Shown: positions 3,368-14,394 of the stretch, piece after piece
Position numbering within the stretch: the first letter of the stretch is position 1
How the letters are laid out: the number at the start of each line of letters is the position of its first letter
IMG/VR virus record: IMGVR_UViG_3300013105_000022
Coordinates: 64,001 to 128,000 of that record
Reading direction: 5' to 3' (one strand)
From: a virus
Lineage: Duplodnaviria > Caudoviricetes
Length of the DNA stretch: 64,000 nucleotides
Notes under the pieces: generated by a model
Database searches by the model: none
What the model was told of the DNA's origin: nothing
The model's input: only the letters and a program-made list of their open reading frames with translations
Translations under genes and position numbers: made by a program

Positions 3368-3588
3368 GCTTGCTCCTTTGGTGTGACAATGATGAAGTCG
3401 CTACCGACGTTCACTACGTATCCTTCCAGATCGTAGTCACCCTTGTCAAGGCTCTGGAGCAAGTTTCTTTCGAGAACTTCAGCATCCCGACGATACTTCT
3501 CCGCAAGATCACGCGCGACCGCGAGACTGTGGATGCCCTTGGTGGCCACGTGCCGGTGCTTGAGTGAGGGAAAATCTGCGAGTGTCAT
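3364..3588 (-). CDS. hypothetical protein (leaderless)
   Basis: ATG 15 nt from the GCGTATA motif. Confidence 0.7.
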   Translation of the reverse strand: MTLADFPSLKHRHVATKGIHSLAVARDLAEKYRRDAEVLERNLLQSLDKGDYDLEGYVVNVGSDFIIVTPKEQA

Positions 3589-3593
3589 GATCT

Positions 3594-3623
3594 AGTTATA
3601 CGCTTACGTGCGCTTCATGTCAA
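3594..3623 (-). promoter_or_regulatory. GCGTATA-class promoter, TTGACA-N17-TATAAC
   Basis: Minus strand: TTGACAtgaagcgcacgtaaGCGTATAACTagatcATG. Confidence 0.8.
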
Positions 3624-3644
3624 ATCGTGTGCTACACTGGGTAC

Positions 3645-3690
3645 TGTCCCCAGAGCAATTGGTCCCCGCCTTAGCTCTGGGGACATTTTT
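3645..3690 (+). ncRNA. candidate ~45-nt hairpin small RNA, or a terminator
   Basis: TGcTACACT extended -10 at 3630-3638; 12-bp perfect stem 3645-3656/3674-3685; 17-nt loop; T5 tail. Confidence 0.5.
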
Positions 3691-3736
3691 GTGCCGGTTG
3701 GGGCCGTGACCTCGAATCGGGGTGTATGATCGATCT

Positions 3737-3995
3737 TGCCGTAAGGCGGGGGCTGTCGTAAACCGACTCCAATCACTCCATAGTTGATGCCTCTCGAAAA
3801 ATGAAGTTGAGCTAGTAACCCTCCTTCATCCGAGTTGAGACTGTGATGGTGCCTCCCTAACTCCTGAAGAGTTGGATGACAATGGTGTCTCCTGCTCAAC
3901 GCTTCGTGCGTGGGGGGTAGGGGGGCATTATCCAATATCCAGTCTCAACATCGAAAATGAAGAATAAGCTAGTACTTCTAGCGTGCGCGAGGCAC
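3737..3995 (+). ncRNA. candidate long rod-like structured RNA
   Basis: TATGAT at 3725-3730; nested stems 3788-93/3989-94, 3811-15/3978-82, 3824-29/3957-62, 3834-43/3940-49, 3845-59/3918-32, several with G-U pairs. Confidence 0.6.
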
Positions 3996-4011
3996 GGGTG
4001 TGTCCGCGTGC

Positions 4012-4041
4012 TTGTCCACTCCACGCCTCAGGCGTATACAT
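4012..4041 (+). promoter_or_regulatory. GCGTATA-class promoter
   Basis: TTGTCC-N17-TATACA; GCGTATA at 4032, ATG at 4047. Confidence 0.75.
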
Positions 4042-4046
4042 GGACT

Positions 4047-4277
4047 ATGAGCGACAACGAACTTGACCACAACAACAAGGTCTACCCGTCTATTGAGGGT
4101 CTTGTCCACCAGATCGTGGATGCCCTTGAGACGAGCAGTGACTTCGTATGGTACTCCTTCAAACGTCCTATCTTTGGGCCAGGAGAGAACGAGGTTCTTC
4201 TCGAAGCCATCTCGTATGACGAGGACGGCGAGGAAGAGAAGTTCTACCACGTGAAGATCAACGTGGAGGCTATCTGA
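4047..4277 (+). CDS. hypothetical acidic protein (leaderless start)
   Basis: Start moved from 3957 to ATG 4047 on promoter spacing. Confidence 0.7.
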   Translation: MSDNELDHNNKVYPSIEGLVHQIVDALETSSDFVWYSFKRPIFGPGENEVLLEAISYDEDGEEEKFYHVKINVEAI

Positions 4278-4666
4278 TGACGAATCTAGACTACGATTAT
4301 GTAGAAAACTACCCGGACTACCTTCAGTGGGTGCCGGTGGACATCACCGAAGACATCTTCAAGGTGACTCTGGAGAAGAACCTCCAGCTTCCCATCTTCG
4401 AGGCAGAGGACGGTGAAGGTCTCTACGGATATGGTGCTATCGAGCCAGAGCTTTTTTTGATGTACGCAAACCTCTACGACTACCAGACCACAGGCGAGCT
4501 TATGCCTTACGGTGGGGTATCCGCTGTGAAGACAGGATGGTTCCGTACCGTCCGTCGTGAGGACATGCTGGAAGACCCAGAGTTCCGCTTCGTGCCCTTG
4601 GAAGTCAATCTGGGGGACACTACTCCTGAGACCGGCAAGATCATGATGACTTGGATCGACAGATGA
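4277..4666 (+). CDS. hypothetical protein
   Basis: GGAGG RBS and TGATG coupling. Confidence 0.75.
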   Translation: MTNLDYDYVENYPDYLQWVPVDITEDIFKVTLEKNLQLPIFEAEDGEGLYGYGAIEPELFLMYANLYDYQTTGELMPYGGVSAVKTGWFRTVRREDMLEDPEFRFVPLEVNLGDTTPETGKIMMTWIDR

Positions 4667-10283: not shown

Positions 10284-10576
10284 GCGGCATGATGGAACAC
10301 GAAGACTTCTACTTCGCTATCAAGCTTTCTAGCTCAGCTTCTCTGGATGAATCACCTAAGCACAACTGGGTTGAGGATGCCGGTGGGCTTCCTCCCTATG
10401 TTCGAGAACTCGCCCGAGGCATCATGAAGAGCGGAAAGAGTAAGTCGCAGGCAATTGCTATTGCCATCAGCCGCATCAAGAAGTGGGCCTCGGGCGGGGA
10501 TGGCGTTGATCCGGATACTCGTGCAAAGGCCGCGAAGGCTCTGGCACAGTGGGAAGCACTAAAGGCCAAGAAGTAG
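10280..10576 (+). CDS. small basic, probably capsid-associated protein
   Basis: Acidic leader ending AIKLSS, then a basic helical domain. Confidence 0.6.
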   Translation: MSGMMEHEDFYFAIKLSSSASLDESPKHNWVEDAGGLPPYVRELARGIMKSGKSKSQAIAIAISRIKKWASGGDGVDPDTRAKAAKALAQWEALKAKK

Positions 10577-10610
10577 AACATTTGGGCGAATGTACTGCTA
10601 AGATGGTAGT

Positions 10611-12506
10611 ATGTCCAAATTCATGACCATGCATGAGTTCTTCAGCGAGCCTGAAGAAACTCTACAAGAGGGAAGTCTAAGCTCTATCTTTGCCGAGGAG
10701 CCGGTAGACCTTCGTACCTTTATCCGAGACCCCAAATTCCTCGGACAGACGAACGTCGAGCTATCTCCAGAACAGGCGCGTGCCATTCAGGTAATTGAGC
10801 GTGTCTACTACCCAGACCTATATCCGCGCATGGCGGAAGAGTTCGAATTCGGTGAGTACTGGGGTCAGGACATCCCTAGCGCTAACCTCATCACTCTCCA
10901 GTGGGGTAAGGGTTCTGGTAAGGACGCCATTTGCCGTTGGGCCTCGCTCCGTGTGGCATATCTACTTCTCTGCCTCAAGTCTCCGCAGTTGTACTTCGAC
11001 ATGCCTGAGACTGACTCCATTCACCTTCTGAACATTGCCGCTAACGCTCCTCAGGCTAACCGAGCGTTCTTCAAGCCTATGACCACTGCCGTCAAGCAGG
11101 GATGGTTCAAGGGCAAGGCAATCATCCGTCAGGGTGAAATCGAGTACGACAAGAACATCTTCGCCGTGTCTGGTCACTCTGACGCTGAAGGTCAAGAAGG
11201 TCTGAACATCATGCTTGGTGTTGCTGACGAGATTGACGCCTTCAAGGCCAAGGATGAGATGGTCGGAACGGGTAAGAAGCTCCGTGAGGCTTCCACATCC
11301 GCTGAGTCGATTCTAGAAATGCTGAAGACCTCCGCATCTACTCGATTCCCGAAGACCTACAAGCGCGTAGCCATTTCCTACCCTCGCTACCTTGGATCGA
11401 CTATCCAGCAGTTGACCACAGAAGGTCGTGAGTCGAACGAGAAGTACGGCGCGCGCTCTATTCACTACGTCTCCGGACCCCTAGCTACTTGGGATGTCAA
11501 CCCCCGTATCTCTGGTAAGGAAGACTTCTTCGAGGACTATGAGAAGGACCCTGTAGGTTCTGCCGCCAAGTACGAGTGCAAGCCTTCCCGAGCTATCGAC
11601 CCGTTCTTCCGCAACATGGACATCTTCAAGCTGGCCGTGGATAACGATGTCATGCCTCTCACCATCGACTACAAGCCGGTGAACTACTACTCCCCTCACT
11701 ACCACCGCAATGTGCGTGGCTGGGAGCCGATCTTCCACTTCTCTCCTGACTTCAAGCCGATCCAGGGTGCTCGCTACGCACTCCACGGTGACCTTGCTAT
11801 CAAGGGTGACCGTGCCGGTATCGCTATGAGCCACGTCGAGAAGTGGGAACACTTCGACGCCACTCTGGTGGACAATGAGGGAGCGAACTATCAGAAGGAG
11901 ATTGTTCGTCCTCTGATTCGCAATGACTTCACCATCTCGTTCGAGGCTAAGGCTGAGGCACGAGACACCAATGGTGACCCACTTCCCCGCGAAATCCAGA
12001 TTCGATGGGTACGAATGCTGGCTGAAGAACTCCAGAACCGTGGATTCCCTATCAGCCTATTCACTTTCGACAGCTTCCAGTCTGCGGACACTATTCAGAT
12101 TTTCACGTCCCAGGGCGTGGAGTCAAACAAGGTATCTACCGACCGTGATCCATCCCTATGGTCGTCCCTCAAGGACGTAGCATCTGAGGGTCGTCTACGC
12201 ATGCCATTCGATCAGCTACTTATGAATGAGCTTGAGGCACTTTCTAGAATTGACAACGGAAAGGTAGATCATCCGCCGAACGGCTCTAAGGACTTGGCGG
12301 ACGCATTCTGTTGCTCAATCGCTGGTGCCATTGTCGTAGGTGGAGAGGAATCCCCCGATGGCGCGATAGTAGATGTCGGAGGCGCATACTTCATGACGGG
12401 TCCTGCGCTTAGCCCGCTAGAGGGCATGGACGACGTATCGCAGACGTTGGGCGATCCGATGGGTATGCCACTAGGATTCCCGGATAGAGGAACATATGGC
12501 TGGTAA
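10611..12506 (+). CDS. terminase large subunit
   Basis: GKGSGKD Walker A, VADEID Walker B, HGDLA and VDHPPNGSKDLAD nuclease motifs. Confidence 0.92.
   Translation: MSKFMTMHEFFSEPEETLQEGSLSSIFAEEPVDLRTFIRDPKFLGQTNVELSPEQARAIQVIERVYYPDLYPRMAEEFEFGEYWGQDIPSANLITLQWGKGSGKDAICRWASLRVAYLLLCLKSPQLYFDMPETDSIHLLNIAANAPQANRAFFKPMTTAVKQGWFKGKAIIRQGEIEYDKNIFAVSGHSDAEGQEGLNIMLGVADEIDAFKAKDEMVGTGKKLREASTSAESILEMLKTSASTRFPKTYKRVAISYPRYLGSTIQQLTTEGRESNEKYGARSIHYVSGPLATWDVNPRISGKEDFFEDYEKDPVGSAAKYECKPSRAIDPFFRNMDIFKLAVDNDVMPLTIDYKPVNYYSPHYHRNVRGWEPIFHFSPDFKPIQGARYALHGDLAIKGDRAGIAMSHVEKWEHFDATLVDNEGANYQKEIVRPLIRNDFTISFEAKAEARDTNGDPLPREIQIRWVRMLAEELQNRGFPISLFTFDSFQSADTIQIFTSQGVESNKVSTDRDPSLWSSLKDVASEGRLRMPFDQLLMNELEALSRIDNGKVDHPPNGSKDLADAFCCSIAGAIVVGGEESPDGAIVDVGGAYFMTGPALSPLEGMDDVSQTLGDPMGMPLGFPDRGTYGW
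12363..12371 (+). promoter_or_regulatory. late promoter motif within the terL 3' end, serving portal
   Basis: GCGATAGTA 133 nt before the portal start. Confidence 0.65.
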
Positions 12507-14394
12507 GGACGACGAAGACAACAAGCTTGAGGCAGGCGAGGTCGCGGCTAACAACCCGAACGCCTTCCCAAAGCCGAAGGACAGTGAGCTTGGCATCGAA
12601 CTCGGTGTGGAGCAAAACCTGCCCTTTGCTGTACCCTTCAGCGACGGCCTTGGAAAGAAGGCACGCCAGGACAAGGAGCTACGAGAGCTTCTTCGTGACG
12701 AGTCCGAAGAGCAGGGTCCTTCTGTATCCCAGCTAATCGCTATGCGCCGTCTGGATGGTCAGGCTCGTGCTCTGTATCGTCTACTCACGCTCCCTCTGCG
12801 TGCCGCTCTCTCCAAGAGCACCTTCATCCCCGCCGATGGGGGAGAAGAAGAAGCAGAGTTCATCGATCACCAGTTCAACCTCCCACCGGCATCCGGTGGT
12901 ATGACTGTGACCTTCCACAGGTTCATGGCTCAGCTTCTCCAGGCTCTGTTCGACGGGTTCTCTCCTTTCGAGATGGTCTACGACTACTCTACGTACGGTC
13001 CTATGAAGGGCAAGTACTACCTGAAGAAGATGGCCTACCGCCAGCCAAACACCATCACCGTTATCGAGGACGAGGATGGCCACTTCGCTGGCTTCCGTCA
13101 GCGCGCCTACGCTAACGGCAAGGCTTACGATGTCGTGATCCCTCGCGAGCGTGCGTTCTACTTCGCCGCTCAAGAGGAAGAGCGCAAGTACTACGGTGTG
13201 AGCTTCTTCCAGAGTGCGTTCTACCACTACGACAAGAAGATCAAGATGTACTACATCGCCCACCTGGCCGCTCAGCGTGCCGCCGTGGGTACTCGTGTGG
13301 GTAAGTTCCCGACCAACATGTCTGAGATTCAGAAGCGCCAGTTCGCTCAGAACCTCTCCAACCTGGCCGTGGCACAGTGGATGCTCGTTCCGATGGACGC
13401 TGAGGTTGAAATCCTCAAGGACAGCGGTTCCTTCGCGTTCCTGGACTACATCAACCACCACAACCACATGATGGCTCAGTCCATCCTTGCGGGCTTCTTC
13501 GACTCTGACACAGGTACAGGCGAGAGTGACAACACTCTCGTCAAGTTCGGCACGCCTGGCGACACCATGTTCTTCCTGATGCTTCAGGCCATCATGGACG
13601 ACATCGCCAACTCGATCAACCACTACATCATCCCGCCGCTCATCGACTGGAACTTCTCGGGTGGAAAGTACCCGACATTCCAGTGGTCTGAGATTACGGC
13701 TGAGCAGAAGTCTCTCATCTACGAGACCTTCAAGACGCTCGCCAACGCCGAGACTGTATCCCCTGAGTTCACCCGTGAACTAGAAATCAAGATGGCCGAT
13801 GACATGGGCCTTGAGATTGACTGGGATGAGGTCGAAGCTCGCGAGGCCATTGAGAAGGAATCCGAGAACATGGTCAACGGTCTCGACGCAGACGGTAAGC
13901 CTCTGCCGAAGGACGCTATGGGCAACCCGATCCTCCCAGGTCAGGACAACCCGGATGCCGCCCTCCAGGCTTTCGAGACTCAGGCCGCTGGCGCTGGTGC
14001 CATTCCAGAGGCTACAGATGAAGAGAAGAAGGCTGTCAAGCTCTCTGCCGACGAGAGCCTACTAGACATGGCTTCTGACCTTCTGAAGCTCGCCCGTCCT
14101 ACCTCCGGCTCGTACCGAACGGTACGTACTCAGGAGGGTGCAGAGCGCTTCGACGTATCCATTGGTCAGCAGATTCCTGCTGGCGCTGGACGAGACGAAG
14201 AGGGCGGCAAGCGCAAGGTAACTGTCGAGCGTCTGATGTCTCTCCGTTCCCAGTTCGATGAGGCTAAGCGCGCCGGTAACCAGGCCGTTGCCGACAAGGC
14301 TATGGAAGCCCTGAAGAAGGCAGTCTACGACTACACAGGTTCCTGGTCTCCTTCCATGTTCATCCAGACGATGAAGAAGCTCCCGACTAAGTAA
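12496..14394 (+). CDS. portal protein (Mu gp29/DUF935-like) with C-terminal extension
   Basis: Follows TerL; GFSPFEMVY and IIPPLIDWNF patterns. Confidence 0.85.
   Translation: MAGKDDEDNKLEAGEVAANNPNAFPKPKDSELGIELGVEQNLPFAVPFSDGLGKKARQDKELRELLRDESEEQGPSVSQLIAMRRLDGQARALYRLLTLPLRAALSKSTFIPADGGEEEAEFIDHQFNLPPASGGMTVTFHRFMAQLLQALFDGFSPFEMVYDYSTYGPMKGKYYLKKMAYRQPNTITVIEDEDGHFAGFRQRAYANGKAYDVVIPRERAFYFAAQEEERKYYGVSFFQSAFYHYDKKIKMYYIAHLAAQRAAVGTRVGKFPTNMSEIQKRQFAQNLSNLAVAQWMLVPMDAEVEILKDSGSFAFLDYINHHNHMMAQSILAGFFDSDTGTGESDNTLVKFGTPGDTMFFLMLQAIMDDIANSINHYIIPPLIDWNFSGGKYPTFQWSEITAEQKSLIYETFKTLANAETVSPEFTRELEIKMADDMGLEIDWDEVEAREAIEKESENMVNGLDADGKPLPKDAMGNPILPGQDNPDAALQAFETQAAGAGAIPEATDEEKKAVKLSADESLLDMASDLLKLARPTSGSYRTVRTQEGAERFDVSIGQQIPAGAGRDEEGGKRKVTVERLMSLRSQFDEAKRAGNQAVADKAMEALKKAVYDYTGSWSPSMFIQTMKKLPTK

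Follow-up and report, generated by a model that had tools for sequence, protein, structure and literature searches.

The region from position 3725 to approximately 3995 (+ strand), which lies between two divergent phage operons, is shown here to be a predicted gene for a conserved structured non-coding RNA of approximately 250-300 nt that falls outside the Rfam families. It resides in a window of 64,000 nucleotides of DNA corresponding to bases 64001-128000 of a 136.5-kb virus record, and the rod-shaped element is single-copy there. The earlier note had described an unannotated structured RNA on the + strand at this site, and that description is upheld, as the rod, its -10 element and two 5' hairpins are all kept with compensatory changes in approximately 18 homologues. 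From the sequence we conclude with high confidence that the element is a + strand structured RNA. Searches of Rfam detected no family in the window region (6S RNA included, at E ≤ 10), in 11 homologous loci (at the gathering score) or in four host and MAG loci (E ≤ 1) and, as far as can be judged from sequence, the rod RNA fits no described RNA family and is a new one. To our knowledge, finds of large structured non-coding RNAs backed by covariation are rare, and we know of almost none from actinobacteriophages.

The segment 3737-3995 (+) has an MFE of -104.7 kcal/mol, compared to a mean of -76.7 ± 4.8 kcal/mol for its dinucleotide shuffles (z = -5.81). All 200 shuffles fold less well, a favorable outcome for a check that the earlier note had suggested. 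The same segment folds worse on the - strand (-92.1 kcal/mol, z = -4.35). The nested long-range pairings that had been read by eye, 3788-93 with 3989-94, 3824-29 with 3957-62, 3834-43 with 3940-49 (a perfect 10 bp) and 3845-59 with 3918-32 (15 bp including G-U pairs), are all present in the MFE fold, where they make up the closing rod (3788-3994, +), and an equivalent rod forms in every homologue despite unrelated primary sequence. The perfect 10-bp arms were recovered independently by a repeat finder, as was the direct repeat that had been pointed out at 3794-3817 (5' copy) and 3951-3974 (3' copy; both +, repeat family D1). The idea that this repeat gives the 5' strand of the rod two possible partners gains from its recurrence in the closest relatives, similar flanking repeats being found in L004 and L097. 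A fifth proposed pairing, GCTAG at 3811-15 with 3978-82, holds in part, in that the MFE fold uses 3811-16 with 3968-73 and both partners are possible. Likewise, the apical loop that had been placed near 3882-85 does exist and caps a hairpin at 3869-3897, but a second hairpin follows at 3899-3911, which makes the rod tip a three-way junction in place of a single loop. The equivalents of these apical hairpins (3869-3911, +) in the relatives are backed by covariation (helices 3, 4, 6, and 7).

On the left of the rod are leftward genes (a 74-aa ORF, a 183-aa ORF, a PHROG of unknown function and a metallophosphoesterase) and on the right are rightward genes (small ORFs, an SbcC-like ATPase, a clamp loader and nucleotide-sugar enzymes), and single-protein searches with the immediate neighbors of the rod found no relatives. 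Both operons have promoters of one type, a GCGTATA-containing motif a few bases 5' of a leaderless ATG. The predicted rightward promoter, recognized by motif recurrence, spans 4012-4049 (+) with a -35-like element at 4012-4017, GCGTATA at 4032-4038 and the ATG at 4047, and the leftward one spans 3586-3623 (-) with TTGACA at 3623-3618, GCGTATA at 3603-3597 and the ATG at 3588; the two form the arms of inverted repeat I2 according to the repeat finder. Across the 136.5-kb genome there are 23 occurrences of the motif, most of them with an ATG 5-9 nt further on. Examples in the window of GCGTATA, approximately 9-11 nt and then ATG are at 3597-3603 (-), 4032-4038 (+), 5914 (+), 57539 (+) and 61621 (+). 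The recurrent arrangement implies that leaderless mRNAs would be widespread in this genome, and the presence of copies with and without a TTGACA -35 element suggests two temporal classes. The same type of motif sits 3' of the RNA in the homologues, and in at least nine phages the operon's own leaderless promoter is located 40-150 nt past the RNA. Since the rod lies upstream of the -35 element of the rightward promoter, and since that promoter is the operon's own and recurrent, the rod RNA is not the leader of the rightward leaderless mRNA. Two further features were observed nearby. The 7-mer CGTGCGC is found at 3607-3613 and 3982-3988 (+), adjoining both divergent promoters, with similar GC-rich boxes 3' of the RNA in most homologues, and it may be an operator or a piece of a 3' hairpin. 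A DNA pattern built on a GC-rich box retrieved only chance matches. Three DnaA-box-like 9-mers (≤1 mismatch to TTGTCCACA) lie within 100 bp just 3' of the RNA at 4012-4020, 4063-4071 and 4102-4110 (+); such 9-mers number 30 genome-wide, approximately the chance expectation, and the cluster at 4012-4110 is absent from the homologues.

A BLASTN search of cultured phages with the region and two of its homologues gave no match, and the relatives were reached through the clamp loader, which is 47% identical to that of Microbacterium phage Magritte. The Magritte record opens with the homologous operon and closes with a leftward gene, and the divergent gap of 546 bp between them folds into a rod of approximately 160 nt (z = -5.4 on the + strand and -4.9 on the - strand) while having only short patches of sequence in common with the window. 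When the two clamp loaders were aligned and used as a query, 12 viral contigs came up, and seven of these carry, on the + strand only and 1.5-2.9 kb upstream of the clamp loader, a motif consisting of a G-run, TA and a second G-run, and all seven fold into a similar rod. A pattern search with the 3' strand added one more viral contig and four true metagenome copies. The pattern gave 119 metagenome and 92 genome matches, which were mostly chance matches in GC-rich DNA and were filtered with nhmmer. Full copies of the RNA were also found in two contigs that are binned into unrelated MAGs, L231 (126 kb, in a Cellvibrionaceae bin) and L217 (in a Holophagaceae bin), and these are probably phage contigs that were mis-binned. 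A phage-type leaderless promoter was observed 3' of the RNA in L231. Copies are also present in two Microbacterium genomes (G001 and G002) and probably in a short Arthrobacter MAG contig, giving in total 16 Magritte-like actinophage or metagenome contigs and two to three bacterial islands of the Microbacterium type. Besides Magritte, the homologous rods thus come from 14 viral, metagenome or mis-binned contigs. The phages that keep the RNA are approximately 40-70% identical in the clamp-loader protein. The phage genes that directly flank the RNA are not conserved, and what is conserved lies further downstream, namely an exonuclease/ATPase, a 76-aa protein and the clamp loader, with the RNA always oriented toward this module.

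All of the copies have a common anatomy. In the 5' to 3' direction, a TAnnnT hexamer is followed by hairpin H1, whose 3' strand ends in a G-run, by hairpin H2, by a CU-rich single strand and by a variable spacer, sometimes with an extra hairpin. The long closing rod comes next, with the junction and its two apical hairpins, and the 3' part contains an invariant G-rich motif and then a conserved 3' strand. In the window, H1 (3734-3751, +) has a GUAA loop and its 3' strand enters the conserved G-run at 3745-3753; across the alignment this helix is 75-76% paired, with many C-G/U-G alternations. For H2 (3755-3767, +), three of the four pairs are changed on both sides and 91.5% of the cells are paired in the fitted 18-row alignment. 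The CU-rich single strand (3768-3779, +) forms a conserved block in the alignments and has the 3' motif at 3930-3940 as its paralogue. The G-run, TA, G-run motif and the conserved 3' strand, ending in CCAATATCC, occupy 3912-3940 (+) and form invariant alignment columns. Two architectural subtypes can be distinguished. In the TAA subtype (Magritte, L006, L008, L041 and others) the two G-runs enter different helices, the first closing the second apical hairpin and the second making up helix P2, and in the TA subtype (the window, L004, L097, L009, L011 and the host copies) the entire G-rich strand pairs with the CU-rich 5' strand and thereby lengthens the rod. The existence of two subtypes accounts for the weak match of the window to the subtype-II core model (17 bits, E = 0.25). 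In both L004 (3008-3034 and 3155-3180) and the window (3768-3817 and 3930-3974), the CU-rich 5' strand with its repeat resembles the 3' strand with its repeat. The RNA thus seems to contain an internal duplication, which could represent two binding sites for one factor.

The conservation of this structure was assessed separately for the 5' module and the core. Sequence-only MAFFT alignments of the whole RNA and of the subtype-I core placed the 5' strands out of register, and for this reason the modules were tested individually and the fold of each sequence was projected onto the well-aligned 3' strand. In an unfitted MAFFT alignment of the 5' module, the two hairpins are 80% paired, compared to 37-48% when the partners are slid, and the covariation score is 0.385 compared to 0.07-0.14, a value that none of 500 shuffles reaches. 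Realignment of 18 sequences, including the host copies, to a model increased these values to 82.5% paired and a score of 0.44. The core model was built from eight sequences with a hand-specified structure and was used to realign ten. The core helices are paired in 86% of the cells compared to 36-52% with slid partners, and 33 of the 50 pairs are changed on both sides where 17 are expected, with none of 500 shuffles as good, although the shuffle counts overstate the significance for the core because the alignment was fitted to the model and the sequences are related. Conservation of the pairing in homologous intergenic regions, the further check named in the earlier note, is thus seen, and taken over both modules the compensatory changes keep helices over approximately 60 pairs. 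The partners that each sequence selects for the 3' strand in its own unfitted MFE fold also agree across the sequences. At the A/G position of the CCARYATCC strand, A pairs with U and G pairs with C (once with U), and this R/Y covariation favors the long-range helix. RNAalifold proposed a local hairpin inside the invariant 3' motif, and this was rejected as the main fold on the same grounds.

The RNA is predicted to start near position 3737, downstream of the -10 element TATGAT at 3725-3730 (+) that the earlier note had already identified. The second base (A) and the last T of this hexamer are invariant in all 14 of the aligned homologues while its other positions vary, and the distance from the hexamer to the structure is fixed at 6-7 nt. 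A sigma-70 scan that demands a -35 element called no promoter at 3725-3730. Several properties assign the structure to the + strand: it is more stable there than on the - strand in 13 of 14 homologues, the paired columns contain 55 G-U cells compared to 13 A-C cells, and the loops of H1 and H2, which are frequently GNRA or UNCG, take these forms only when the + strand is read (UUCG, UACG, GUAA or GCGA for H2 among the homologues, and GNRA for H1 in several). The ORFs that cross the element have no protein-level relative in the homologous loci, and a coding function was dropped from consideration for that reason. The 3' boundary is less sharp. In the window, the 3' hairpin (3968-3982) and the GC-rich segment that together span 3968-4011 (+) contain no hairpin followed by a U-tract, and only two of the 18 homologues, Magritte and L014, have a canonical terminator (hairpin plus U-tract) after the rod. 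Since the rod lacks a defined 3' end, while a much smaller hairpin upstream of it mostly has a terminator, read-through into the operon is plausible.

This tiny hairpin (3645-3691, +; inverted repeats I3 and I5) consists of a perfect 12-bp stem with a 17-nt loop, then T5, and is preceded by an extended -10-like sequence, TGnTAnnnT, that we read at 3630-3638 (+). It is a candidate RNA of approximately 45 nt or a terminator. Ten nucleotides of its loop (3664-3673) are perfectly complementary to 3742-3751, that is, to the 3' strand of H1 and the G-run. At least nine phage homologues have an equivalent hairpin with a C-rich loop and a TAnnnT hexamer located 4-9 nt before it, mostly followed by a U-rich tail, and in each of these the loop matches its own RNA around the G-run over 7-16 nt. 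The complementarity averages 7.7 nt for cognate pairs and 6.3 nt for non-cognate pairs (permutation p of approximately 1.5e-4), and the modest size of the difference is explained by the C-run and G-run that are common to all pairs.

Copies of the rod RNA also exist outside of phages. The host copies are located at L229:1589-1830 (-), equivalent to approximately 1369589-1369830 of G001:C1, and at L238:6924-7166 (-). The copy in G001 is downstream of T2SSE/T2SSF (tad) genes, and on its other side are two resolvase-family genes, a cation-efflux gene and a kinase gene at distances of 2.5-10 kb, with the resolvases at 2.5-3.5 kb and 8-10 kb. The copy in G002 has the same tad neighborhood and different DNA downstream of the RNA. 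The host copies are closely related to the phage RNA, with a 3' motif identical to that of phage contig L011, and together with their place near tad and resolvase genes this suggests transfer either from phage to island or from island to phage. Within the genus Microbacterium, BLAST found the RNA in one of 151 sampled genomes and the 5' model gave one true match in 101 genomes (a second fell in coding DNA), from which it follows that the rod is not a core Microbacterium RNA. Two metagenome copies, in L124 and L062, adjoin DUF3800, DUF4209 and transposase genes. The L124 copy lies between a DUF3800 gene and a DUF4209/DUF7380 gene (10512-13790, 13869-14261) with an IS3-type transposase near, a neighborhood that looks like an island or a defense region. 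Given that the neighboring phage genes are not conserved and that copies are found beside unrelated island genes, the RNA travels as its own unit. In L229, a sub-threshold match to the actinobacterial 6C RNA (34.4 bits, where the gathering score is 47) was observed at 4484-4560 (-), approximately 2.7 kb from the rod copy.

We propose, with a probability of roughly 0.4, that the element encodes a stable, trans-acting, protein-binding RNA that is modulated by the tiny RNA. The host-type -10 element would start the RNA near 3737, and the RNA would be made early by the unmodified host RNA polymerase. It would then accumulate as a stable rod, perhaps after being trimmed out of a longer transcript. 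We infer that it would act in trans by binding a protein through two paralogous modules, each of which is a G-run followed by a UCCAAC-AUCC-like strand, while the loop of the tiny hairpin RNA would pair with the 5' G-run and so modulate the folding or the activity of the rod. The leading candidate for the partner protein would be the host RNA polymerase (RNAP), which we hold to be an unlikely target in absolute terms. The phage encodes at least one weak match to sigma-70 region 2, which makes polymerase takeover a plausible theme. An extended and similarly improbable version of this proposal is that the tiny hairpin RNA and the rod RNA of approximately 260 nt constitute an autonomous two-gene module, carried by large actinophages and some actinobacterial islands, in which the junction-tipped rod would capture the host RNAP or another core factor during takeover and the tiny RNA would titrate the rod.

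The rod RNA could instead function in cis as a structured leader, a possibility that we regard as real if somewhat doubtful. Polymerase from the -10 element at 3725 would read through the rod into the replication and structural operon, and the rod would serve as an attenuator or switch set by the tiny RNA, in the style of P4 CI and P1 c4, or as a put-like anti-terminator element. A leader would agree with the constant direction of the RNA toward the exonuclease/clamp-loader module, and with the lack of a canonical terminator after the rod in 16 of 18 copies when the tiny RNA has one in most phage copies. The flanking direct repeats give the 5' strand of the outer rod two alternative partners, and the small upstream hairpin on the same strand with its complementary loop fits the P4/P1 design. 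Yet the operon has its own leaderless promoter past the RNA in at least nine phages, and the first genes downstream of the RNA are not conserved. Moreover, the island copies precede unrelated DNA, with the downstream sequence differing between the two Microbacterium genomes, and invariance of primary sequence over a strand of 30 nt is unusual for a pure attenuator.

A replication function was also considered, in which the rod RNA would be a ColE1-like primer or origin RNA whose G-rich transcript would hybridize persistently to the C-rich template beside the replication genes, and the tiny RNA would correspond to RNA I. The RNA adjoins the clamp-loader/exonuclease module in all phage copies, its invariant G-run is on the non-template strand, a small RNA is complementary to its 5' region, and the annotators of Magritte set base 1 of the permuted genome at the rod site, all of which speak for a primer. 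We nevertheless consider a primer very unlikely, as chromosomal-island copies are not accompanied by replication genes, there is no skew switch at the rod site and every fold has the G-run base-paired within the rod. The origin structure that the earlier note had entertained finds little support, the DnaA-box-like cluster being unconserved and copies of the RNA being present in chromosomal islands, and an origin built on DnaA boxes was rejected. Least probable is that the element works at the level of DNA, as a cruciform, operator set or packaging signal. Its location between divergent promoters and the short palindromes within the direct repeats, which could be operators, would suit such a role, but only one strand tolerates G-T pairs, the tetraloops are of the RNA type, the -10 element is conserved at a fixed distance and compensatory changes extend across approximately 60 pairs.

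The existence of a cultured member of the family, Microbacterium phage Magritte, which grows on M. foliorum, makes direct experiments feasible. If the trans-acting RNA does bind RNAP, these phages would be copying the strategy of Ms1 and 6S RNA, and if the rod and the tiny RNA do form the module described above, it would be the first phage-encoded functional analogue of Ms1/6S, equipped with its own RNA antidote. Should the rod prove to be a primer or a leader under antisense control, the early control region of a group of phages not yet studied would thereby be defined.

Comparisons with known systems place these proposals in context. In plasmid ColE1, RNA II and RNA I offer the parallel of a long structured RNA with a G-run, a small complementary regulator and adjoining replication functions, although the regulator described here is not antisense-encoded, no evidence for an origin was found at the rod and copies occur outside of replicons. 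P4 CI and P1/P7 c4 are small phage RNAs that are encoded upstream of, and on the same strand as, their targets. The tiny hairpin, a predicted RNA, likewise is small, sits upstream on the strand of the rod RNA and has a loop that complements it, and here the complementarity co-varies. It differs in that the target is the 5' G-run of a large structured RNA rather than the ribosome-binding site of an antirepressor gene, and the rod locus in these phages contains no immunity region. The put element of phage HK022 is a cis-acting antiterminator RNA of approximately 70 nt with two stem-loops. The rod and junction are much larger (approximately 260 nt) and the operon is served by its own second promoter, but the rod RNA is, like put, promoter-proximal and ahead of a very long operon, and it could contact the transcribing polymerase. 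Mimicry of helix 11 of 16S rRNA was considered and discarded, as local alignments to Microbacterium 16S rRNA were no better than those to shuffles.

The remaining comparison is with the RNAs that bind RNAP, which the earlier note had invoked in suggesting a decoy of the 6S/Ms1 type. 6S RNA binds the sigma-70/sigma-A holoenzyme by means of a bubble that mimics an open promoter, and it templates pRNA. Membership of the element in the 6S family (RF00013) is not supported, as there is no covariance-model match, its MFE and consensus structures have only small internal loops and its tip is a three-way junction; a central bubble resembling an open promoter is not evident in either structure. It is also longer than typical 6S RNA. 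It resembles 6S in being a rod-shaped RNA of the abundant type and, like the E. coli 6S RNA, it may have no terminator of its own and be processed out of a longer precursor. Ms1 is an RNA of approximately 300 nt that is transcribed by sigma-A; its fold is a long hairpin interrupted by a central bubble, and two short hairpins lie near the ends (PMC4191392). It binds the sigma-free RNAP core (PMC4191392, PMC9130861), and its gene is syntenic with those of a HAD hydrolase and related proteins, with CpaE-type neighbors in some genera (PMC9130861). Identity of the rod RNA with the host Ms1 was rejected on sequence: by inspection, the Ms1 of S. coelicolor (PMC9130861 supplement) contains neither the G-run, TA, G-run motif nor the CU-rich block. 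In the host genomes the copies adjoin T2SSE/T2SSF (tad) genes, and every match to PF12710 (HAD) falls at least 80 kb away from the RNA (G001) or on separate contigs (G002). With no Rfam match, a junction in place of a bubble and an S. coelicolor Ms1 that lacks the invariant motifs, the decoy reading is not supported by these comparisons. Ms1 is also widespread, whereas the host copies of the rod RNA are confined to one or two of the approximately 100-150 Microbacterium genomes sampled, and the two RNAs differ in that the tip of the rod is a three-way junction with no evident central bubble along its length. What they have in common is an actinobacterial setting, a length of approximately 250-300 nt, a promoter of the sigma-A type, a long hairpin closed at its ends and small hairpins near those ends, and a functional analogy of the phage RNA with 6S RNA and Ms1 is possible.
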